Of a stretch of DNA of 64,000 nt, positions 2,309 through 63,999 are shown piece after piece. The notes below the pieces were generated by a model that made no database searches, was not told the origin of the DNA, and was given only the letters and a program-made list of their open reading frames with translations. Source of the DNA: Candidatus Saccharimonadales bacterium. Lineage in GTDB: Bacteria; Patescibacteriota; Saccharimonadia; Saccharimonadales; SZUA-47. The stretch spans positions 17,648 to 81,647 of the forward strand of contig JBBQVE010000001.1 in the NCBI GenBank assembly GCA_038211855.1, written 5' to 3'. The translations under genes and the position numbers were made by a program. Numbering within the stretch: the stretch's first letter is position 1; every line of letters begins with the position of its first letter.

Positions 2309-2689
2309 TTATGACTCGAGCTGTTTGAGATATTCAACGAGTTCGCGTGGGGTGATTTCGGCCTTGATAAGGTAGCCATCGGCTTGTTTTTCGATGCGTT
2401 CGCGGGTGCCTTCTTCTTGGTCGAGGTTGGTCGTAACGATAATCTTGGCTTTGATTTGCTTCGGACGATCCGGGCTGCGCAAACGGCGCAACACCTCAAT
2501 GCCGTTAATGCCGGGAATCATCAGATCTAGTAAGATGATATCGTAGATGTCTTTTTCGGCTTCAACAACCGCTGTATCGCCGTCCGGTGCCGTAACAACT
2601 TCATAGCCGGCAGTTTGCAAAGCACGAGTATACAGCTCGCTAATGAAGAATTCGTCCTCGATACATAAGATTTTGAGTTTCTGATCCAT
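2309..2689 (-). CDS. Single-domain response regulator (CheY-like receiver)
   Basis: 126 aa with the receiver motifs IEDE (acid pocket), IILLDLMIPG (phospho-Asp), VTTN and YLIK. The RBS AGGAG is upstream of the ATG. It lies 3 nt downstream of the histidine kinase gene. Confidence 0.8.
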   Translation of the reverse strand: MDQKLKILCIEDEFFISELYTRALQTAGYEVVTAPDGDTAVVEAEKDIYDIILLDLMIPGINGIEVLRRLRSPDRPKQIKAKIIVTTNLDQEEGTRERIEKQADGYLIKAEITPRELVEYLKQLES

Positions 2690-2692
2690 GCT

Positions 2693-4237
2693 TTATCTCC
2701 TGTACATGCTATGGTTCTTAATCCAGCCGTGTGCTCCCCTCATGATACCATCTTGACCCTGTGCTTCAGCGCCATGTCGCGCTTCATCATACTGCTCGAG
2801 GGTAAACGTGAAGATGCTGCCTTCGCCTTCTTTGCTGTTGACCCAAATATTGCCACCATGGGCGTTGACGAGTGCTTTGCAGAGATACAAGCCAAGGCCG
2901 GTGCCCCCGATCTGAACACGACTACGGTGACTACGGTAGAATTTATCAAATAACTTTGGTACCACACTGGCGGGAATACCGAGGCCATTATCTTGAACGC
3001 TCGTTTCAACCATACCATCGCGGCCAATTTTACTGGTAATGGTAATCTGTTCGGACTTGCCGCCATACTTAATGGCATTATCAACGAGGTTATTGATGAT
3101 TTCATGGACGCTGATACGGTCGGCGGCGACCAGTGGAATCGATGGATCAATCTCAAGAACTATATGCTTGCCATGGACTTGGGCACGCAGCTCAAGGTCG
3201 GCTACGGCAGAGGTCAGGATCTCTTTGAGGTCTTCCTTGTGCAGCGTCAGCGTGAGCTGATTCTCACCGATGCGGGCCACATTCAGGATATTACTCACAA
3301 AGGCCGTCAGTTGCTGGGCGCTGGCGTGCATCTTATGCATAAAATCTTTCAATTCAGGCGCCAAACCTGGGCCAAGCTCGTCTTCAAAGACTTCTATATA
3401 ACCGCGCATAATGGTGAGCGGTGTGCGCAGTTCATGCACGGCCATCGCGACAAAACTAATTTCTTGATCATCAGCCGCATACGATTCGGTGTGATCGAAG
3501 AAAACGAGGACTGACTCAACCTCACCAGCGCCCTTGCTATAACTGGCCGCCATATCGAACTGCTTCGTCGGGTTGCCATCTGTATCTACCAAACGCACAC
3601 GGTTCCAGGTAGTGCCTGCCTTCACAACATTCTTCTGACAATCTGACAACCACGTCTCATAAGTGAGCTCGCTTGGAAAACTCATGTTTAGGATATCATT
3701 GATGTTTTTACCGATTGAGGCTTGTCGCTTTTCGGCATCGATACCCAGATACACCACCGCCGCATCATTCATATAGTGCAAATGTGAGGCACTATCGACG
3801 GTTAATACTGGCAACGGAGTGGCATTTAACATCTTTTCGCCGCCTATGACGGCCGCTTGCGGATGTGGCTCCTGTTCTTGACTATGACCCGCTTTGCTGG
3901 CCATTTCATATACTTGGAGGGCCAAAACAGATACCATCTCACGGCCAAGTTTTATATGTTCGATATCAGGAGCTGGTGTAGCAGAAGTCTCACGACTGAC
4001 GTGTAAGATGGCCTGACGCAGATTTTTGAGTGGTTCGAGGGCGTAGGATGTCGTGGCTGCGGACATAAAATATGCACAGACAAACCCAATCGTGATCGAG
4101 CCGACCGCTAACGGAATGTTTGGAACATGCAGATGTCTGCCTGCGAGCCACACGACGAGAGGAACGAGCGAGACAAGCATAAAAGCCATCCACAGTCGGC
4201 CAATGAGGGCTTTTTGGACGGCTTTTAAATGGTCCAT
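2693..4237 (-). CDS. Membrane sensor histidine kinase (HisKA + HATPase_c)
   Basis: 514 aa with an N-terminal TM segment. The H-box is AMAVHELRTPLTIMRGY. The N-box is NLVDNAIKYG, and a G-box DNGLGIP...GGTGLGL is present. Confidence 0.8.
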   Translation of the reverse strand: MDHLKAVQKALIGRLWMAFMLVSLVPLVVWLAGRHLHVPNIPLAVGSITIGFVCAYFMSAATTSYALEPLKNLRQAILHVSRETSATPAPDIEHIKLGREMVSVLALQVYEMASKAGHSQEQEPHPQAAVIGGEKMLNATPLPVLTVDSASHLHYMNDAAVVYLGIDAEKRQASIGKNINDILNMSFPSELTYETWLSDCQKNVVKAGTTWNRVRLVDTDGNPTKQFDMAASYSKGAGEVESVLVFFDHTESYAADDQEISFVAMAVHELRTPLTIMRGYIEVFEDELGPGLAPELKDFMHKMHASAQQLTAFVSNILNVARIGENQLTLTLHKEDLKEILTSAVADLELRAQVHGKHIVLEIDPSIPLVAADRISVHEIINNLVDNAIKYGGKSEQITITSKIGRDGMVETSVQDNGLGIPASVVPKLFDKFYRSHRSRVQIGGTGLGLYLCKALVNAHGGNIWVNSKEGEGSIFTFTLEQYDEARHGAEAQGQDGIMRGAHGWIKNHSMYRR

Positions 4238-4239
4238 TT

Positions 4240-5466
4240 TTACGGTGCAGCCGGCGCTGCAGGTGCCTTATAATTTACCATTGTGGCTTGGCCAAGTGCC
4301 GTGAACCAGGTTTGTCCAGGGTTAATCGGCAAAGTCACGCCGTTTGAGTCTTGGAGAACGAGCGGCGAGGTAGCCTGCGGTTTGCTCCACTTTGCAGTCG
4401 TCACGATACCGTCTTCGAAGACGACTGCATCGCCCGTTCCAATGCTAGCGTAGTCGCTGTGAATATCATCCGGATCGATGTTATAGCGAATGATGAGGGC
4501 GACAACGACCTTCGGCTCGAGCTGTTTACCGGACTTTTCATCAACGTGCGGCGCACCGGCTTCGCTGCGTTTGTAAGCATTGTTGGCGGCATCATAGTCG
4601 TAGTGCACGAAGAAATTGGTGCTAGAGATGGCAAAATCGAGGGTGGTAGCGTTTGGTGTCTTACTGGGTGCCTCGGCCTTTCGAGCTAAGCCAGTAAAAT
4701 CAGGATTGCCCCAGTTCCTGTCGCTCCGTACTTTATCAAGCACTGACATACTCGTATAGGCATTGTGTGGCGCATATCTCGAGCTGACGCGTTGAATCGG
4801 GTTATCGGCCCCATTCTCGCCCATATCCATCAATTTAAGTTGGCTAAGCATCTGCAAGGCCACGGCACTACCACCGATGTGCATATAGGTAGCATTGTAC
4901 GGCAATAGCCAGTTGATGTAATACGGCCGAGCACTCCGCACCGGTCCGATGTAGGTCGGTTGTTCGGTCTGGAAGAGGGCCAAAAAGCGTGTAATGCCAC
5001 CTTCGGCGATTGCTTCGTAGACGACGCCAGCGTCCAAAAGACCAGACTGTGGACGTGCGTCGATACTATTTTCGATCATGACACCAGTGACGCCGCGTTG
5101 GTTGAGTTCAGGCGTGACTTGTACGCCAGTTAATTTGCTTGCAACCGTTGTTGGCTTTGGTGGCTCAACCGCCTTCTGGATGACGGGCGCAGGCTTCAAG
5201 ACAGGTACGACTTTTTTAGGACGCGTCAGCAAAAAGGCCGCCACGACACTCCCAATTAGCAAGACACCAAGAGGAATAAAGATGAGCAGCTTTTTTTTGG
5301 TTGTCAGACGCGTAAACCAGTTTTGCTTTTTGCCAGCGCTAACTGTGAGGGTTGGTCCTGTATCGGTATCAACCATCGCGTCATCTGCCGCCATCTCTTC
5401 TGGAGGGACAAATTCTGGATCTTTTAAGGTATCATCTGGTTTTTTTATAGCTTTGGCGTTGTCCAT
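4240..5466 (-). CDS. DUF3048-family (YerB-like) membrane-anchored secreted protein
   Basis: 408 aa. An N-terminal acidic segment is followed by one TM helix (LLIFIPLGVLLIGSVVAAFLL). The C-terminal domain has DUF3048-like motifs (GVVYEAIAEGGITRFLALF, PVRSARPYY) recalled from memory. Its stop abuts the HK start, consistent with an operon. Confidence 0.45.
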   Translation of the reverse strand: MDNAKAIKKPDDTLKDPEFVPPEEMAADDAMVDTDTGPTLTVSAGKKQNWFTRLTTKKKLLIFIPLGVLLIGSVVAAFLLTRPKKVVPVLKPAPVIQKAVEPPKPTTVASKLTGVQVTPELNQRGVTGVMIENSIDARPQSGLLDAGVVYEAIAEGGITRFLALFQTEQPTYIGPVRSARPYYINWLLPYNATYMHIGGSAVALQMLSQLKLMDMGENGADNPIQRVSSRYAPHNAYTSMSVLDKVRSDRNWGNPDFTGLARKAEAPSKTPNATTLDFAISSTNFFVHYDYDAANNAYKRSEAGAPHVDEKSGKQLEPKVVVALIIRYNIDPDDIHSDYASIGTGDAVVFEDGIVTTAKWSKPQATSPLVLQDSNGVTLPINPGQTWFTALGQATMVNYKAPAAPAAP

Positions 5467-40309: not shown

Positions 40310-43300
40310 TTATATCTTATCGTCGAGTAAGTCTTGCTCAAATTTTTCGATGCCGTGTATATCTTGTGAGTAGGCCGTAGTGTCAGGAAAATCTGTAGCT
40401 ATGATTTTCTTCCAGGCTTTTTGAATCAAAGTAGACATACGTGCAATTTCTTCGGAAGTAGGAGTATAGCTTTGGATAAGGTGTTTGATATCGGGTGATT
40501 CAACATAGACCATTTGACATTCGATAGCTGACCTGCCGGCCAATCGCGGTGTTTGGCTTGCTAGTAGTGCATAAAAAATAAGCTGGCTACGGTGACGCCA
40601 TGCTTTGACCGCTTTACTTTGATCATTCGTAAACAGACTAGTCAGTGGTTTGCCCGTTTTGTAGTCAGCAATGATGATTTTATTCGGATCTTGGCCATCA
40701 ATGCGATCTAGTTTACCGAGTAGTCGCACACCGCCTTCGAGCGTGCAGATGAGTTTTTGCTCACTATTACTTTTTGGTTGGAGCGTATAGCCATATGTCT
40801 CAAACAACGTACCAAGTGTTCTTTGACCGAGTGGCAAATAACGCTCGAATTCGTCAGAGAGGACCTGTTGCTCAACTAAGGCATCTTCGTAGGCTTGGAA
40901 GACCTCATCCAAATCAAATGCATCTTTGTTGACAAGCTTTTGAGCATATTCCAACGCAGCGTGTATGGCCGTACCGTAGGATTGACTCATGGTTTTTGCT
41001 TCTGGTAATCGCAGCAGATCGCGTTCTTTAAAATAGCCTGGACCGCCGACCGTCACATCCAAAAAATTTAAAAGTGCCGTCGGGCTGAGTGTGAATTCTT
41101 CGAGTACTGGTTGCAATAAAAAACTTTCTTTAGCATGACCAAGTTGTGGCCATGATAACGCTGATTCTAAGACTTTTTTGGGGTCGCCTGCATTTTGTAG
41201 CTCAATGCGTTTGGGTGGCAGAACTGCTCGAACAAATGGTGCGCTCAGCAATTCTTCGCCGAGTACGTTACTGTAGAAACTACTCACAAATAAAGAATGT
41301 TTGGCGCGCGTTGCGGCAACATAAAATAGTCGCGCGTAGTCATCGGCATCTTCGCCATAGGCTTGCAAAGGCAGGTTAACCGGCGACTTGCGGCCGCCGC
41401 GGTTTGGCTTCCAGTATTCTTCATTTGCATCAACTACGAAAACGGTGTCAAATTCAAGACCCTTGGCTTTATGCACGGTCAAAAGTTGCACGGCATCATT
41501 GCCACTTACGTACACGGAAGAGTCAGTGATGAGCCGCTTGTTTTCACGGTTCACATGTACGAACTTCATAAAGTCCGTTAAAGTCACTTCATTTTTAATA
41601 GAAAATTCGCGCGCCAAATCGGTCAGTAATCGGAGGGCCGAAAGCGCTTCTAAATAAGCTGAAGTTGTCGCCTTGTTTTCAAAGAAATGATTGCGTATTG
41701 GACTTGTAAACTTCTCATACGGTCGCAAGCCGACAATGTATTCGATCATCAAACTGAGCGGATTCGTAGCAGCGGCGCGCGCAAGCTCCATGAAGTCTTT
41801 CATAAGTTCTACAATTTGTGTATCCTCTGAGGCTAACAGGCTTTTAACCCAGTGCGGACGGTATCGATTGTCGATTGCCAGTTGCCACAATGCTTCTGTC
41901 GATACGCCCCACAAAGGCTCGCGTAGTAGCTCACTCAAAATGACGTTAGATGCAGCCTCGTTACCATTGTTAAGTTCAATGAGCAGATCACAGACCAGCA
42001 GTACTTGCACGACGACAGGATGGTTTAGCGCGTTATTTTGACGTTCATAACGAATCGCTACATCCAACGCTTGCAGTTGTTCAGCGAGGCGCAAGAGACT
42101 TTCGTGACCGCGCGCCAACACAGCAATCGTTCCGCTTTTTTTATGTGCAACAGCAATGGTGTTGGCAATAGCACTCAGTTGATGCTCGCGCGTGGGGTAC
42201 GAAAGATGCTGTATTGTTCCTTGCTCTGTTGGTTCTTTTTTGGCGATGAGGTTCTTGATGATGTCGGCTTCACGTTTGGTGAGCCGGTCATTTATTTGCT
42301 CGGCCAACAGATGTGCGGTGTTCAAAATCGCCTGACTAGATCGATAGTTTTCGACGAGTACAATCGCCTTTTTTATCTTGTAAAACGAGCGGAAATTGAG
42401 CATGTTGCTAAGTTCGGCGCCATTAAACTTAAAGATCGATTGATCGTCATCACCGACCGCCATCAGGTTCGGTTGACCATTGCTGGTGTGATGGTCTGCC
42501 ACAAGGTGGGCGAGGCGCAGCTGTGCCGGATTCGTGTCTTGAAATTCATCGATCAACACGTGCGTAAACTGTTCCTGCACATCACTGCGCAACTCAGTAT
42601 TTTGTTCCAACTGACTAATGACTTCAACAATCATATCCGAATAATCGTAGTAGCCACGAGTGTGCAATGTGTCGCGGTAGAGTTTGTAGACGTGTGACAG
42701 CTCGAGCCACCACTGGTTTATCGATCGTTCAGCATGCATGCCCTTGACGCCATCAACAGATTTTACAAAGCGTTGCTTCCATTTGCTCGTGTTCGTGGCT
42801 TTGCCTGTATCAGCATCTAATGCAATTGCTTGTTTCAAACTTTCTACTAAAACACTGCGTAAAGACAAAAGTGGTGTAATAGCTGTATCAATTGACTGCT
42901 CCGGCAATGCTTCAATATTTGTTAATAATCCATATAATTTTTTGTAACTCAGTGTTTCGCTCAAAATGTCGACGACATCAGCTTCAATAAGATCAATATA
43001 GTCCAAATTTACAGAAATGATTGTCTCGAGTTTTTCGGGCGTTAATCCTGCCTCTTTAGTGAGTTTGAGAGCGTTTTGAACCGCTGTGGTGCCGGTCAGC
43101 TCACCTGCAAACCGTTTGGCTAAGGGATTATCGAGTGGAAGCGACATCAGGATTTCTTGAATCACTTCCAGCTGTACCGTATCAGGCACTGTTCCAAGTC
43201 GAGCCCCATTCCAAAAATAATCTGGATAGTCATTCATGATGTCAGCCGCAAAACTATGAAAAGTCCGCACGGCGACTTTATAGGCGGCCGGGCCAATAAA

Positions 43301-59494: not shown

Positions 59495-60667
59495 TTATGC
59501 GTCAAGACTAACCGAGAAGATTGAGCCTTTGCCGACAGTCGAAAAAGCTTCCAGACTGCCACCGTGGAGGTCAATAATACGTTTCGCCCAATAGAGTCCT
59601 AGACCAGTACCGCCAAAGGTTTCGCTCAGTGGGTTAATGATACGACGGAACTTCTGGAACAGCTTTTGCAGGTCGCTTTTGCTGATGCCGACGCCTTCGT
59701 CTTTGACATCAATAATCGCCCGACCCGGCTTGTAGCCGATCGTGATGTTGATGGTTTTGCCAGCCGGCGTGTATCTGTGAGCATTGTCGAGCAGGTTTTC
59801 GATGACTATACGGAACTGAGCGACATCGATGTTGGCCATTATTTCTGGACGCACAGTTTTGAACTGTAAACGTTGCTGTTTAAGTTCTATTTGTTGGGTG
59901 TGCTCGCTGATGACTTCTTTAACGACGCTGACGAGGTCAGTTTGAGATTTTTTGAGTTCAAAGTAGCCGGAGTCGACGCGGGCGACTTTGAGCAGGTCGT
60001 CGACGATACGCAACTGCCGGTCACTGCTTTCGTAAGCGACGTCGAGCATCTGCTTTTGAGCATCCGTCAGGTCGCCAAAATACCCCTCTCGTAGCATACT
60101 AATGTATTGGCGGACGCCACTGACTGGTGTGCGCAACTGATGACTCGCAAGCGCAATAAAGTCGTCTTTGGCTTCACCTAAAGCCTGTAGATGTGCGGCT
60201 TTTTCTTTGAGCATCTGTGAGTGAAGTCGCAAGGCACGGCTGTTACTGCGGGCCGTCTGGACCTCATGCTGATATTTTTTGCGCTCCATAGCGTAGCGGA
60301 TTGAACGGACAAGCGTCGATTGATCAAACTGGCCCTTTAGCAGATAATCTTCGGCACCTTTTTGGAGTGCACTGATAGCAAGGTCTTCTTCGTCCTTACC
60401 GGCCAGGAATACAACCGGTAAATTGGCGGCGACGCGTTTGAGACGCTGGAAGGTTTTGAGGGCTTTGGCATCAGGCAGCGTGACGTCACAAAGGATGATA
60501 TCGATCAATTTATCGGCACGGACCATGCGGGCAGCTTGTTCAAGGGTGGTGGCTTCAAGGATAAGATAGGCGCCTCCACTCGATTGTAGGGTGCTCTTTA
60601 TAAAGTCGCTGTCAGCTGCGTGGGCAGCAACGATTACGAGCCTGATAGTTTTTGTAGCCTCTAACAC
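59495..60667 (-). CDS. Hybrid sensor: N-terminal receiver domain fused to histidine kinase (HisKA + HATPase_c), cytoplasmic
   Basis: 390 aa. The receiver has ...IILCDVTLPD... and YLLKGQ. The H-box is LASHQLRTPVSGV, the N-box is NLLDNAHRYT, and GGTGLGL is present. Confidence 0.7.
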   Translation of the reverse strand: MLEATKTIRLVIVAAHAADSDFIKSTLQSSGGAYLILEATTLEQAARMVRADKLIDIILCDVTLPDAKALKTFQRLKRVAANLPVVFLAGKDEEDLAISALQKGAEDYLLKGQFDQSTLVRSIRYAMERKKYQHEVQTARSNSRALRLHSQMLKEKAAHLQALGEAKDDFIALASHQLRTPVSGVRQYISMLREGYFGDLTDAQKQMLDVAYESSDRQLRIVDDLLKVARVDSGYFELKKSQTDLVSVVKEVISEHTQQIELKQQRLQFKTVRPEIMANIDVAQFRIVIENLLDNAHRYTPAGKTINITIGYKPGRAIIDVKDEGVGISKSDLQKLFQKFRRIINPLSETFGGTGLGLYWAKRIIDLHGGSLEAFSTVGKGSIFSVSLDA

Positions 60668-60787: not shown

Positions 60788-61027
60788 TCAGCCGAGGAAC
60801 CAATCCATTTCGTTGTCATTGAACTTTAATTCAAAAGTGCCGTTTTTGTCGGCTGCTGTAAAGACATGCACATCCAGGCCGTTCTCGAGTTCGGTGTGGT
60901 AGTTGGCGATGTTGGTCACCTCATATGACTTCCCTTGCCAGCTAATTCGGAAAGGTCGCATAGCGGGCGCGCTACCTTTACCGTTCCGATTATTTCTCTC
61001 TGGAGCGATAGCGATATTCTTTGACAT
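60788..61027 (-). CDS. Hypothetical protein (79 aa)
   Basis: ORF only. It is tightly packed with two more small genes. Confidence 0.3.
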   Translation of the reverse strand: MSKNIAIAPERNNRNGKGSAPAMRPFRISWQGKSYEVTNIANYHTELENGLDVHVFTAADKNGTFELKFNDNEMDWFLG

Positions 61028-61028
61028 A

Positions 61029-61265
61029 TTACCTCCAATTGCATACGGATACCTTTAATTCTGGCAAGAGCAGCCGGGCTTCGGCGATGGCCATACCGGC
61101 ACGAATACCAAGGATTTTGGCCTCACGGCTGGCGGCGGTGATAACGCAGTGATTGATGTCGCGCAGCGCCTTACGCTTGCGGCCCGAGGTGTCGATGGCA
61201 AACGCCCAACTGCGGGCAATTTGCTCTTTGGTGGTCATGTTGAGGGTGAGTTGGATTTCTTTCAT
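61029..61265 (-). pseudogene. Y-family polymerase (ImuB/DinB-like) N-terminal fragment, 78 aa
   Basis: ALRDINHCVITAASREAKILGIRAGMAIAEARLLLPEL resembles the conserved LR..PV.V..S..RGVV.AASYEAR.FGVRSGMP...A..LCPEL block of Y-family polymerases. Catalytic DMD residues are replaced (RSWAFAIDTS), and the ORF stops after 78 codons. Confidence 0.3.
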
Positions 61266-61279
61266 AAGAGGGTTCCCTT

Positions 61280-61546
61280 CTATAAACTTCTGCTGCTGAG
61301 CAGCTTCCAGCGGTTATTACCTGGTTCAAAGCTGAGGCGGTACAAGTTTTGGCCGTCAGTCATGTTGAAGATTTCGATCAGTTCTTGGCCCTTTCTGACC
61401 ATGCAGCGCAGGCCATTCTCTAAGAAATTGAGCTGATGACCTTGCTCGTCTTCGATACGGCGTGGAAAGCTTTTTTGGGTGGAGCCGTGTGGAAAATAGT
61501 AGGAAGTGACATTGATTTCGCGGGCTTCTTTTACTCCTTGGTTCAT
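61280..61546 (-). CDS. Hypothetical protein (88 aa from the second ATG)
   Basis: AAGGAG abuts the first ATG (spacing 0), so the second ATG at 61546 (spacing 6) is preferred. Confidence 0.3.
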   Translation of the reverse strand: MNQGVKEAREINVTSYYFPHGSTQKSFPRRIEDEQGHQLNFLENGLRCMVRKGQELIEIFNMTDGQNLYRLSFEPGNNRWKLLSSRSL

Positions 61547-61814
61547 GTACATCTCCTTGATTTATGGGTACTTTTAAAAGACGACTGATAACATTTCAGC
61601 CGGAACGGATAGGAGCGGACGAGTTGCCCTGGTCTGCGCACACCGTCCGAGTGCGGGACACTTAAGGGGTAACTTAGATGTATATGTGGCTGCAGCAGTG
61701 ACCGAAGTATGCTTGCCAAGGAGTGCTTTTTGAACCATTGAGGTTCAAGTTATAAAGCCTGGAAACGATGAGTCGGAAAACCTGACCATGCTCCCATAGC
61801 TACTTCTAGTATAC

Positions 61815-61845
61815 GCCTTGCGCAGGTAGTCCGCGCAAAGTTTTT
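61815..61845 (+). terminator. Plus-strand Rho-independent terminator with no upstream plus-strand ORF
   Basis: CTTGCGC-AGGTAGTCC-GCGCAAG forms a 7-bp stem and is followed by TTTTTAT. No A-tract precedes it, so it does not act on the minus strand. Confidence 0.45.
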
Positions 61846-61859
61846 ATGACTACAATTTG

Positions 61860-62459
61860 TTAGTTTTGATCGGGCTCGCGACCAGTGAGGCCGAGTAATT
61901 TATTCTGCAAACTGGCATCCTCCGGTACTTCGATGGCTGCGCCAAAGACGCCCAATTTGCGCCACTCTTCGGCGTGATCCTTGAGCATGTCCCAGATGCT
62001 CTGCACAAGTTCGGCGGGCATGGTGGTATCGGCACCGATTTCAGCCGCAATATCATGGCTGCGCATGCCGCGGAACAAACTAATGTGCTGCAGGTAGTCG
62101 CGGGCTGGCCATTCGCCATAACTGAGGTGAACTTTCCGGTCTAACTCGGTAAAAGCTTCAACTGCAGCTTGGGCCTTTTCAACAATGGCCGCATAACTAG
62201 CCTGAGGATCTTCACCAAGCAAATCACCAGCGTAGGTATCACCAACTTCTTCGGACGTCTTACCAGCCAATGTGTCTGGCACCCAAGCCTCATCAAAAGC
62301 ATGGTAGTTAATAAGCTCGCGCAGACTGAGGTCTTTATCTGGAGCGCTCCAAGAGCGGAAGGACTTTGGCAAAATCATTGTCCACTGAGCGTCTTTGATC
62401 TGAGCCACAACGGCGCTCAACGCCCGGTCGGCGGTCAAAAATAGTGTTTTTTCGTCCAT
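61860..62459 (-). CDS. DinB_2 / MDMPI_N-like four-helix-bundle protein (TIGR03086-like)
   Basis: 199 aa. The N-terminal pattern (DRALSAVVAQIKDAQW...) resembles the maleylpyruvate-isomerase N-terminal-domain family. This is a weak call. Confidence 0.3.
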   Translation of the reverse strand: MDEKTLFLTADRALSAVVAQIKDAQWTMILPKSFRSWSAPDKDLSLRELINYHAFDEAWVPDTLAGKTSEEVGDTYAGDLLGEDPQASYAAIVEKAQAAVEAFTELDRKVHLSYGEWPARDYLQHISLFRGMRSHDIAAEIGADTTMPAELVQSIWDMLKDHAEEWRKLGVFGAAIEVPEDASLQNKLLGLTGREPDQN

Positions 62460-62577: not shown

Positions 62578-63999
62578 ATGAGTATGGAAGATAAGGTGCG
62601 CCAGTCACGACAGGAGATTCTAGTAAATCATGGCTATGTTGAGCCACTCGCTCCTGGTAGTAACCCTTTTGATATTGATCTTGATACATTAAACGGCATT
62701 GCGAATCGGATGGCCTCCACGGGGTATACGTCAACAAACAGTTCGCTTAGTTTTACAGACATCGGTACAACAACGGAAGAATGGGCCAAAGCTTCCCTCT
62801 TTAGAGGGGGCGACCAACGCTCAGAAGCTGCTTACAAGCGAGCTATCGTTGCTGGCGATCAGGTGATTGGTCCTTACCGCGTCAAAGAAGGACGCGGCTT
62901 AGCGCTCTGGCAGGATTTGCGAGCCGGTTTACGACGTAAACATGGTGATATCTCTTGGGGCATTCTTGGCGGCCGTGGTCAAATCGGTAGCCGTATTATT
63001 GAGCAACTGAAGGATCCAATGATTGCTGCCCGCTCTGGCTTATCAGTCGTACCAGACTTTATTGTCGGCAAGAACGGTCTGTCTCTCGAAGGCGAAGAAA
63101 AAGCTCTGCCTTTTGGCATGAAAACCCTATTGCCAGAAGTGGACCTCCTTTTTGTGGCGATGCCAGGGTATGGTGGCGCAGACAGTCTGACAGACGTACA
63201 TATTGTCCGCCAATTTGCTCGTCGCGGCATTGTCGTTTCGGCAGAAAAAGCCAGCTTTTCGGAGCATTTTGTTGAATACAAGGAGCTTTCCGATGATTTT
63301 AGGCTCTTTGGCTATAATGCGACGGTAGGAGGTGGCACGAGGTTGATGGATAAATTAGCCAGCGACTGTGTGGATGTCAAGAACATCCATGAGCTGCATC
63401 TGGCTCTCAATGGCACGCTCTCATTCTTTATGGGACAAGTCGCCAATGGTGTGGCACCGGGTGTGGCGATTGATCAAGCAATTGATCTGCATTACGCCGA
63501 GCCAGGCGCCGAAGGTGTGGAAGATGTGTTGCGTGCCGAAGCAACATCAGATGTTCCGCGCAAGCTTGCAATTGTTATGAATAAACTGTTATTTACCGAT
63601 CAGACAGCAGTCCATCCTTTAGATTTTGATTTTGACGTCAACGATAAGGATATTCGAACTGCTATACGAGAAGCAGCCGATCGAAGGTTTGTCGTCTCTT
63701 TATATAATCTGGATAAAATGCAGGGTTCTGTTGAAGAGAAGTCCGAGTCGGTTATTGGTGGGTTTACTCAAATGTATGATGGCTGGCTGGTGGTTAGTGG
63801 TTTCCAGCGTTTGAGCCACAACTCCCTTCTGAAGCCATTCGACCGGGCTGGTGCGATCGCAGGTTACTCCGCAGGACTTGGTCCTCATAGTCAAGATGGT
63901 ACACCGTATATGATTGGTGATGGGGCCGGCCGCAAACAAACTGCAAACACTATGCTTGATGATGCTCAACGCCTCATTGCTGCTCAACGGGCAAAATAA
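62578..63999 (+). CDS. hom: Homoserine dehydrogenase family protein with ~110-aa N-terminal extension
   Basis: The Rossmann motif is GILGGRGQIGS. FGYNATVGGGTRLM resembles FEA.VGGGIPII. AEPGAEGVEDVLRAEATSDVPRKLAIV resembles AEADP..DV.G.DAA.KL.IL. Confidence 0.55.
   Translation: MSMEDKVRQSRQEILVNHGYVEPLAPGSNPFDIDLDTLNGIANRMASTGYTSTNSSLSFTDIGTTTEEWAKASLFRGGDQRSEAAYKRAIVAGDQVIGPYRVKEGRGLALWQDLRAGLRRKHGDISWGILGGRGQIGSRIIEQLKDPMIAARSGLSVVPDFIVGKNGLSLEGEEKALPFGMKTLLPEVDLLFVAMPGYGGADSLTDVHIVRQFARRGIVVSAEKASFSEHFVEYKELSDDFRLFGYNATVGGGTRLMDKLASDCVDVKNIHELHLALNGTLSFFMGQVANGVAPGVAIDQAIDLHYAEPGAEGVEDVLRAEATSDVPRKLAIVMNKLLFTDQTAVHPLDFDFDVNDKDIRTAIREAADRRFVVSLYNLDKMQGSVEEKSESVIGGFTQMYDGWLVVSGFQRLSHNSLLKPFDRAGAIAGYSAGLGPHSQDGTPYMIGDGAGRKQTANTMLDDAQRLIAAQRAK

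Follow-up and report, generated by a model that had tools for sequence, protein, structure and literature searches.

In model bacteria, SOS-type mutagenesis operons are under the control of LexA. For instance, the LexA/SOS box controls umuDC in E. coli and operons of the yolD/uvrX type in Bacillus. Moreover, riboswitches for damaged or unusual purines are known, such as the 8-oxoguanine variants of the guanine class and the NMT1/xanthine class. These RNAs are small three-way-junction aptamers or NMT1 folds, and they are held in Rfam. To our knowledge, regulation in the Patescibacteria (Candidate Phyla Radiation) has hardly been explored, and only a small number of structured RNAs are known to be specific to these bacteria. 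Here, we describe an RNA element in the gap at positions 61553-61859 of a stretch of 64,000 nucleotides (the window) from a Candidatus Saccharimonadales bacterium (GenBank assembly GCA_038211855.1, contig JBBQVE010000001.1, positions 17,648 to 81,647 of the forward strand). A preliminary description had regarded this gap as a candidate non-coding RNA gene on the plus strand. The gap does harbour a structured non-coding RNA. However, this RNA is a 5' leader on the minus strand, which ends in its own terminator before the next gene, the small gene p88, and it is not a free-standing non-coding RNA. The leader probably acts in cis on the p88 operon, whose transcription it would attenuate in a riboswitch-like manner. 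In the literature, neither a Saccharibacteria or Patescibacteria riboswitch of such kind nor an RNA motif near umuC was found; the same holds true for RNA regulators of translesion polymerase genes, and nothing relevant was found on LexA in Saccharibacteria.

Distribution of the leader

The leader was compared among relatives' loci, which are designated by L-numbers and were all collected by p88 homology. By using nhmmer and blastn, it was detected upstream of a p88 homologue and in the orientation of the gene in 21 of 21 loci from species-representative genomes, and 15 further metagenome loci likewise carry it in front of a p88 homologue. A covariance model (R1), which was built from 26 sequences and does not include the pseudoknot, matches the leader in all 36 sources searched (41-225 bits; Saccharimonadia loci). 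In the window, the R1 match (61544-61807, minus; 169.1 bits, E ~2e-40) spans the whole leader RNA, beginning immediately behind the -10 box and extending to the start codon. This is the single significant match in the 64-kb window, in which no second full copy of the leader was found by R1. The leader is about 225-260 nt long, and the loci that carry it are diverse, with a mean column identity of 52% and p88 proteins that share 34-77% identity with the window copy. The proteins encoded next to the gap have homologues only in metagenome-assembled genomes (MAGs) labelled Saccharibacteria, Saccharimonadales or Patescibacteria. Two contigs with the leader and p88, L004 and L018, have been assigned to MAGs labelled Limnocylindrales and Burkholderiaceae and are probably binning contaminants.

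R1 yielded no match in 677 kb of unrelated viral DNA. The 80 viral loci that make up this negative control derive from a loose pattern scan of viral contigs, which had returned more than 120 stretches; the 80 that were examined with the covariance model did not match and the stretches were attributed to chance. A blastn search of phage and plasmid collections with the leader was also negative. Furthermore, none of the 4227 models of Rfam 15 accounts for the leader. At the gathering score, the whole window contains only two tRNAs, which are located elsewhere. A 501-nt query (61450-61950) gave no match at E <= 10, nor did the leader of any of ten diverse homologous loci at E <= 1. The all-family scan that the preliminary description had proposed thus left the gap without a family, and its impression that the RNA does not resemble RNase P, SRP, tmRNA or 6S RNA holds.

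Some of the loci depart from the common layout. An insertion of about 100-150 nt is present in the linker between the helices P3 and P4 in L005 (2700-2850) and L027 (500-610), and 150-250 extra nucleotides separate the pseudoknot and terminator region from the p88 start in L021, L022, L037 and L038. About 40 nt upstream of the leader in L022, there is a sub-threshold match to Hammerhead_3 (2458-2513, plus strand; 33.6 bits as compared to the gathering score of 48.5, E 0.002), which is probably due to chance.

Architecture and covariation

The first helix, P1, is a long hairpin with a variable tip (61756-61801, minus; AGCU-UGGGAGC ... GUUUCCA-GGCU), in which 10 pairs are formed in 94% of the alignment cells and 7 pairs have changed on both sides. 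The P1 module alone is matched by a separate model, R2, with 52 bits. A weak match of a P1-only model at 40391-40423 (18.5 bits, E 0.049) lies inside an open reading frame (ORF) of 1075 aa and was judged to be a chance hit. P1 is followed by an optional hairpin, P2 (61726-61749, minus; UUGAACC/GGUUCAA), which is restricted to the window, L002, L023, L024, L025 and L026 and whose paired sequences differ among the carriers, for example AAGAAUC/GAUUCUU and AAGAGCA/UGCUCUU. The P3 stem GGCAAGC/GCUGCAGCC (61688-61717, minus) encloses the conserved loop AYAC-NNNN-GUCMCU (61697-61710), which holds a 2-bp AC/GU mini-stem and a tetraloop; in L035, the mini-stem is replaced by CC/GG. The stem itself covaries, as illustrated by GGAUGGC/GCUUAUCC and GGGUGGC/GCUCACCC, and the P3 core motif is present upstream of the p88 gene in 36 of 38 loci. 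A single-stranded linker with the consensus CAUAUACAACU (61670-61687, minus) forms conserved columns in the alignments A4 and A6, in which no conserved pairing partner for it was found.

The 3' part of the domain consists of the irregular long hairpin P4-P5 (61627-61669, minus), with the outer pairing CCCU ... AGGG and the inner pairing CGCAC/GUGCG. When 28 sequences were folded with the loop kept unpaired, each of them gave P4-P5 as a single hairpin with 6-17 bp. P4 is paired in 85% of cells with 3 pairs changed on both sides, and in P5 all 5 pairs have changed on both sides. The P5 loop contains the 5' strand of a pseudoknot (GGACGG, 61643-61648, minus), which pairs with the 3' strand CCGUUC (61603-61608, minus) abutting the terminator stem on its 5' side. 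The six positions are all paired in 26 of 26 sequences (97% of cells) by seven strand combinations, namely GAACGG/CCGUUC, GGACGG/CCGUCC, GAGCGG/CCGCUC, GAAUGG/CCAUUC, UAACGG/CCGUUA and two with a G.U pair. Compensatory changes have occurred at 4 of the 6 positions, and the spacing between the strands varies from 38 to 57 nt.

The structure including the pseudoknot was drawn by hand from the same sequences and then scored on a MAFFT alignment that was made from sequence only. As controls, the 3' partners were slid by 1-3 columns or the columns were shuffled 500 times. In the MAFFT alignment, standard pairs occupy 86.2% of the cells as compared to 29-45% in the slid structures, 28 of 41 pairs have changed on both sides as compared to 10-17, and the covariation score is 0.341 as compared to at most 0.174. 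None of the 500 shuffles attained any of five measures. A model-based alignment agrees, with 28-29 of 41 pairs changed on both sides across both alignments. Among the paired cells, there are 93 G.U but 34 A.C combinations. The assignment of the RNA to the minus strand follows from this excess of G.U over A.C in combination with promoter, terminator and gene orientation.

The preliminary description had pointed to other helices, formed by GC-rich complementary segments. These segments exist (GCGGACG at 61615-61621, two nucleotides from the position first given, CGTCCG at 61644-61649, GTCC at 61645-61648 and GGAC at 61656-61659), but they do not form conserved or covarying pairings. The covariation across relatives that the description had suggested looking for is strong, and it resides in the helices of the minus-strand leader instead of those that had been named. 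CGGACG is the pseudoknot loop, and a partner CGUCCG is found in the window genome only; the GCGGACG/CGTCCG pairing is a genuine alternative for the pseudoknot loop in that genome and was rejected as a general feature since it is missing elsewhere. In the window, the CGUCCG in the spacer (61613-61621, minus) is a perfect alternative partner of CGGACG and could compete with the conserved CCGUUC pseudoknot.

Promoter of the leader

The leader is preceded by motifs of a putative sigma-70-type promoter. The -10 box TATACT (61808-61813, minus) belongs to columns that read invariantly TATAMT in a 19-sequence alignment, and a box of the TAnAnT type lies immediately upstream of the model match in 28 of 28 aligned loci. 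A -35-like hexamer, TTGCGC (61833-61838, minus), is separated from the -10 box by 19 nt; both hexamer and spacing are identical in L023 and L024. Further upstream there is an A-tract, AUAAAAA (61841-61847, minus), which may act like an UP element. From these motifs, the start of transcription is predicted near 61800-61802. In L006, L008, L009, L010, L012 and L016, a CRP/FNR-like palindrome, TGTGG-N6-TCACA, is located about 20 nt upstream of the -35 hexamer (alignment A3). The palindrome is conserved within one clade, degenerate in L007 and absent in the window.

The terminator and a possible switch

At its 3' end, the leader carries an intrinsic terminator, CGGCUGA-AAUGUUA-UCAGUCG, which was called by a terminator scan (minus strand; stem-loop 61582-61602, tail UCUUUUAAAA at 61572-61581). 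The folding energy is -8.3 kcal/mol (z -3.0), and the 6 pairs of the stem are formed in 89-90% of cells, with 5 of the 6 changed on both sides. All 28 sequences have a T-rich tail with at least 5 T within 9 nt after the stem. The terminator ends 31-52 nt before the ATG in the 28 aligned loci and 35 nt before it in the window. The intervening segment contains the Shine-Dalgarno sequence AAGGAG (61553-61558, minus), of which AGGAG is conserved in all aligned loci, and is followed by the start codon ATG (61544-61546, minus). Since there is no room for a promoter between the terminator and the start codon, p88 must be transcribed through the terminator. Thus, a covarying domain, a position in the 5' untranslated region (UTR) after a predicted promoter and a terminator platform, which are features of attenuation-type riboswitches, are all present. 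The sequences directly show that the element is conserved and covaries, that it lies on the minus strand, that it is accompanied by motifs of a promoter and a terminator, and that it is linked to its downstream genes.

From these features we infer transcription and its attenuation, an antiterminator, and the existence and nature of an effector, which may be combined in the following model. The promoter, with the -35 hexamer TTGCGC, the 19-nt spacer and the -10 box TATACT, would start the transcript near 61801, and the first approximately 200 nt would fold into P1, P2, P3, the single-stranded linker and P4-P5 with the pseudoknot. The expression of p88-p78-p79, and in relatives also of umuD-umuC, would then hinge on read-through of the terminator, and the folding of the upstream domain, set by an effector, would choose between termination and read-through. 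In the presence of the effector, P1 and the pseudoknot would be stabilised, the terminator would form and the operon would be off. When the effector is lacking, the terminator arm would be captured by the P1 5' strand and the operon would be on. With a small molecule as the effector, the leader would be a riboswitch; alternatively, a protein, possibly p88 itself, could act as the effector, for instance on P1 in both of the leaders described below.

The candidate antiterminator is the P1 5' strand UAGCUAUGGG, which is complementary to ACCCGU...GGCUG, that is, to the pseudoknot 3' strand and the 5' arm of the terminator. When each sequence was folded without the 3' arm of the terminator, the P1 5' strand was the most frequent partner of the 5' arm and the pseudoknot 3' strand, and the alternative helix between UAGCU-AUGGG and ACCCGU...GGCUG is paired in 89% of cells as compared to 17-48% in slid versions. 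Three other switch pairings, of the GCAGCU block with the terminator 5' arm and of the linker CAACU or the P3 loop GUCMCUG with the terminator 3' arm, were rejected because alignments inspected by eye showed that they are not kept where the terminator sequences differ.

Several observations weigh against attenuation by this leader. The candidate antiterminator shows no significant covariation, and shuffles equalled its pairing in 47 of 500 cases and its covariation score in 84 of 500; its columns are too conserved for the shuffles to discriminate. Moreover, the antiterminator would require that P1, an already formed local hairpin, opens again. P5 and the outer part of P3 are paired in 61-65% of cells only, which can be attributed to loop sizes that vary between the sequences. 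In L019 and L020, P4-P5, the pseudoknot and the terminator are missing from the leader copy in front of umuD, and P1 alone may act there via another mechanism. Finally, all loci were collected through p88 homology, so that the link was examined in the direction from p88 to the RNA.

The downstream genes and the link to umuDC

The first gene after the leader encodes p88, an all-beta protein of 88 aa (61280-61546, minus). The gene had been listed as 61280-61552 with 90 aa; the start is probably the ATG at 61544-61546 rather than at 61550-61552, because AGGAGnnnGTATATG stands at this place in the relatives and the gene is publicly annotated with 88 aa. p88 has 57 homologues, none of which is named and all of which belong to Saccharimonadia or Patescibacteria. 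The family has no match in Pfam or NCBIfam, and a Pfam scan of 20 family members and a profile search of PDB sequences revealed nothing significant. An AlphaFold2 model (pLDDT 88) has seven strands, and no PDB match at E <= 0.001 was obtained with it in a Foldseek search.

The next gene, p78 (78 aa; 61029-61265, minus), matches the Pfam family IMS, the N-terminal domain of Y-family polymerases, at profile positions 31-65 (E 1.7e-5), and homologues of p78 come after p88 in many loci. In L003, L004, L010, L012 and L022, they remain a separate small ORF beside a full-length UmuC. Thus, p78 is not simply a gene remnant. It is followed by p79 (79 aa; 60788-61027, minus), which was recognised by blastp as a distant paralogue of p88, since two proteins, those at L016:3320-3592 and L036:1019-1291, are similar to both. 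In L009, L011 and L016, the gene directly before the Y-family polymerase encodes a p79-like protein instead of an S24 UmuD-like one (L011:3231-3497, L016:3320-3592), and the p79-like protein may be an alternative accessory factor of the polymerase.

In at least 12 loci (L003-L005, L007-L012, L016, L021 and L022), the p88 operon runs on into genes for a Peptidase_S24 (UmuD-like) protein and a UmuC-like polymerase with IMS/IMS_C and usually DUF4113 domains. By its gene content, the operon of these relatives is a mutagenesis operon of the Pol V type. The window copy is not a full umuDC operon, for it contains only p88, p78 as an IMS fragment and p79, followed by a histidine-kinase gene. The latter encodes a hybrid sensor kinase with receiver, HisKA and HATPase_c domains (59495-60667, minus), and a kinase of this type is also encoded upstream of the leader in L003, L005-L008, L010, L012, L016, L017 and L021. 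The kinase may be part of the same response. In loci without umuDC, a TerC-family membrane protein or an ABC exporter can be encoded after p88/p78 (L014:3761-4750, L018:3434-4414, L013:3702-5477). No Mn2+ (yybP-ykoY) riboswitch was detected ahead of the TerC gene of L014, the only locus searched, at E <= 1.

L019 and L020 differ in that umuD-umuC form a separate unit on the opposite strand, which is preceded by a shortened copy of the leader directly upstream of the umuD-like gene (L019:4398-4544, L020:5608-5756, minus). In L019, the umuD-like gene at 4041-4400 and umuC at 2719-4149 follow. The short leader has its own -10 box, P1, a CUUUAUAAC junction and two small hairpins with ACCA loops. 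Since it retains a P1 that covaries (GUGUGG/CCGCAC as compared to UGGGUA/UACCUA), P1 can be regarded as a module common to the p88 and umuDC transcripts.

The gap is flanked on the other side by a gene for a 199-aa protein (61860-62459, minus) that resembles the TIGR03086 family (75.6 bits, just below the cut-off of 83). A TIGR03086-family metal-binding protein is the neighbour in L024, too (L024:52-582). Both flanking genes are thus on the minus strand, as had been noted before. Farther away, a 473-aa ORF (62578-63999, plus) has a weak match to the C-terminal domain of homoserine dehydrogenase (Pfam E 4.8e-6), which is preceded by a long N-terminal region without a Pfam match.

Alternative explanations

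It is unlikely, though it deserves the most attention among the alternatives, that the element is a stand-alone small RNA (sRNA) gene of about 225 nt on the minus strand, which acts in trans or in a ribonucleoprotein, for example with p88, p78 and p79, and that p88 is expressed only by leakage and is not regulated by the RNA. A complete promoter and a good intrinsic terminator, as judged from the motifs, would suit such a gene, and so would the many conserved unpaired nucleotides and the pseudoknot, which are typical of RNAs with a tertiary structure. Moreover, the element always accompanies three small proteins without an assigned function, and the antiterminator lacks significant covariation. 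However, the terminator always lies at the short distance of 31-52 nt from the start codon with no promoter-like sequence in between, and the element occurs in one copy per locus, always in the orientation of the gene, with a position that is tied to p88 in 28 of 28 loci (collected through p88). In addition, the short version without terminator in L019 and L020 is a plain 5' UTR before umuD.

A second explanation places the control at the level of the DNA, where the repeats and conserved blocks would be operators, for example of a LexA-like repressor, instead of RNA structures. This would agree with the p88 operon being an SOS-type mutagenesis operon and with the pseudoknot strands, which include the two half-sites, GAAC and GTTC, known from the SOS box of Gram-positive bacteria. 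P1 starts at the predicted transcription start, the 19-nt promoter spacer contains dyads, and one clade has the CRP/FNR-like palindrome upstream of the -35 hexamer. The evidence from covariation makes it very improbable, since five helices covary with very different sequences from lineage to lineage, which a single DNA-binding specificity would forbid, and the asymmetry between G.U and A.C is sensible in RNA alone. Furthermore, the GAAC/GTTC-like strands are separated by a variable distance of 38-57 nt and change to GAGCGG/CCGCUC and GAAUGG/CCAUUC. A GAAC-N4-GTTC box with at most one mismatch does not occur in 61500-61900, and the window as a whole has 20 such matches as compared to 25 +/- 5 expected.

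The preliminary description itself favoured a plus-strand non-coding transcript that would end at a hairpin and T-tract (61815-61847), which we consider highly improbable. The inverted repeat does exist, and the T-tract GTTTTTAT follows it on the plus strand only, as had been observed, and an antisense transcript is conceivable. However, the CTTGCGC/GCGCAAG hairpin is imperfect on the plus strand (CTTGCGC ... GCGCAAA-G), where 6 contiguous pairs with flanking C.A mismatches enclose a 9-nt loop, or a bulged extension, before G-UUUUUAU. On the minus strand, CUUUGCGCGG-ACUAC-CUGCGCAAGG (61816-61840) forms a 10-bp stem including two G.U pairs, which is more stable (-15.3 kcal/mol, z -3.07, 1 of 200 shuffles equally stable) than the plus-strand form (-11.9 kcal/mol, z -1.72, 16 of 200). 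The terminator scan called the hairpin on neither strand. In view of the z-score, the shuffles and the scan, a plus-strand terminator at this place (61815-61845 in the preliminary description) appears no better than chance.

The conservation of this hairpin, on which the earlier reading had been made to depend, was examined as well. Its 3' arm is missing in L023 and L024, the closest relatives that differ in sequence, where other small dyads occupy the same spacer, and the helices named in the preliminary description do not covary. L023 and L024 retain only AAAAAC-YTTGCGC of the hairpin region, at 19 nt from TA(T/A)ACT. Thus, the supposed T-tract and the 5' arm are best taken as the A-tract and the -35 hexamer of the minus-strand promoter, and the repeat overlaps the -35 box and the spacer. 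Among the sequences compared, the hairpin is confined to the window genome. It lies 20 nt past the stop codon of the 199-aa gene and may help to end the transcript of this upstream gene, but it lacks a U-tract on the minus strand. Moreover, a scan of the gap revealed no promoter-like site on the plus strand, no plus-strand gene lies upstream within the gap, and the plus strand of the whole gap folds no better than shuffles (z -1.32 as compared to -2.75 for the minus strand). The orientation, the excess of G.U, the -10 box and the terminator all indicate a minus-strand transcript, contrary to what had been assumed.

The gap had also been called free of ORFs, which is correct in so far as none is conserved, but both strands do contain short ORFs. 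The least probable explanation of all is a small protein or a leader peptide, encoded by the 54-aa ORF at 61574-61738 (minus) or by a short 5' ORF (AUGGGAGCAUG...). Although AUGGGAGCAUGA (Met-Gly-Ala-stop) recurs in many relatives, the 54-aa ORF begins within the P2 hairpin, which is missing from most loci. The lengths of the alignment gaps do not fit a triplet frame, and substitutions preserve base pairs and not codons. No Shine-Dalgarno sequence precedes the AUG close to the 5' end, and about one third of the sequences have AUGUGGGUAC... in its place, with a different reading.

Implications

The cis-acting leader that is left as the preferred explanation is present in 36 copies, shows significant covariation and a pseudoknot, and stands in front of genes for mutagenic DNA-damage tolerance. 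A narrower claim can be advanced only tentatively, and we rate it as rather doubtful, namely that the leader is a new, Saccharimonadia-specific riboswitch, which senses a metabolite or an ion and gates a umuDC-type operon together with its small partner proteins, so that an RNA would do the job of LexA. The signal would perhaps be a damage-derived nucleobase, a nucleotide signal or a genotoxic xenobiotic, and the TerC and ABC-exporter genes downstream of the leader in some loci would fit the idea of a xenobiotic. If the leader were a true riboswitch, its ligand would reveal the signal that switches on error-prone replication in reduced, host-dependent bacteria, and it would provide a first handle on p88, p78 and p79, conserved small proteins that are linked to Pol V. 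If instead p88 binds the leader, it would define a new RNA-binding fold. Either way, 61572-61801 (minus) is a concrete construct for testing.

Comparison with known systems

T-box leaders can be set aside as relatives of the element. No Rfam T-box match was obtained in the gap at E <= 10 or in ten homologous loci at E <= 1, and the genes downstream of the leader are not aminoacyl-tRNA or amino-acid genes. The layout is closer to that of the terminator riboswitches with a pseudoknot, such as the ZTP/pfl, fluoride and cobalamin classes. Like these, the leader is a 5' leader on the strand of the gene, with a covarying multi-helix domain, invariant unpaired nucleotides and a pseudoknot strand that abuts the terminator ahead of the Shine-Dalgarno sequence. 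However, the leader matches no Rfam model even at E <= 10, its closing helix is the local hairpin P1 and not a P1 formed between the 5' and 3' ends, and its downstream genes do not hint at a ligand in the way that metabolic or transport genes would.

With protein-mediated attenuators such as ribosomal-protein leaders, PyrR, TRAP and the BglG/LicT RAT systems, the element has in common a structured leader and a terminator with a small protein encoded immediately downstream. The occurrence of the P1 module in two operons of one genome (L019, L020) would also fit a common trans-acting factor. In contrast to those systems, the leader has no homology to any of them, and p88 has no recognisable RNA-binding domain or fold match. 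The LexA/SOS-controlled umuDC systems share the proteins, since relatives encode a UmuD-like S24 peptidase and a UmuC-like Y-family polymerase with DUF4113. There, the likeness ends, because the conserved element is an RNA structure in the 5' UTR and not a palindromic operator, and no Gram-positive SOS box is found at the promoter.

The nearest functional precedent is provided by the 8-oxoguanine and xanthine riboswitches, which are RNA sensors for genes that deal with DNA or nucleotide damage. The leader differs from them by its length of about 200 nt, its architecture, the lack of a model match and its association with a translesion polymerase operon. In its mode of occurrence, it resembles the orphan motifs of the Breaker/Weinberg type that are held in Rfam, with which it shares intergenic conservation, covariation and a fixed gene association, whereas it stands outside the 4227 families of Rfam 15 and so far belongs to Saccharimonadia only. 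Taken together, the sequence comparisons give good support to the view that the element represents a class of cis-regulatory leader RNAs that is new, occurs in Saccharimonadia and is linked to p88 and to genes of the umuDC type.

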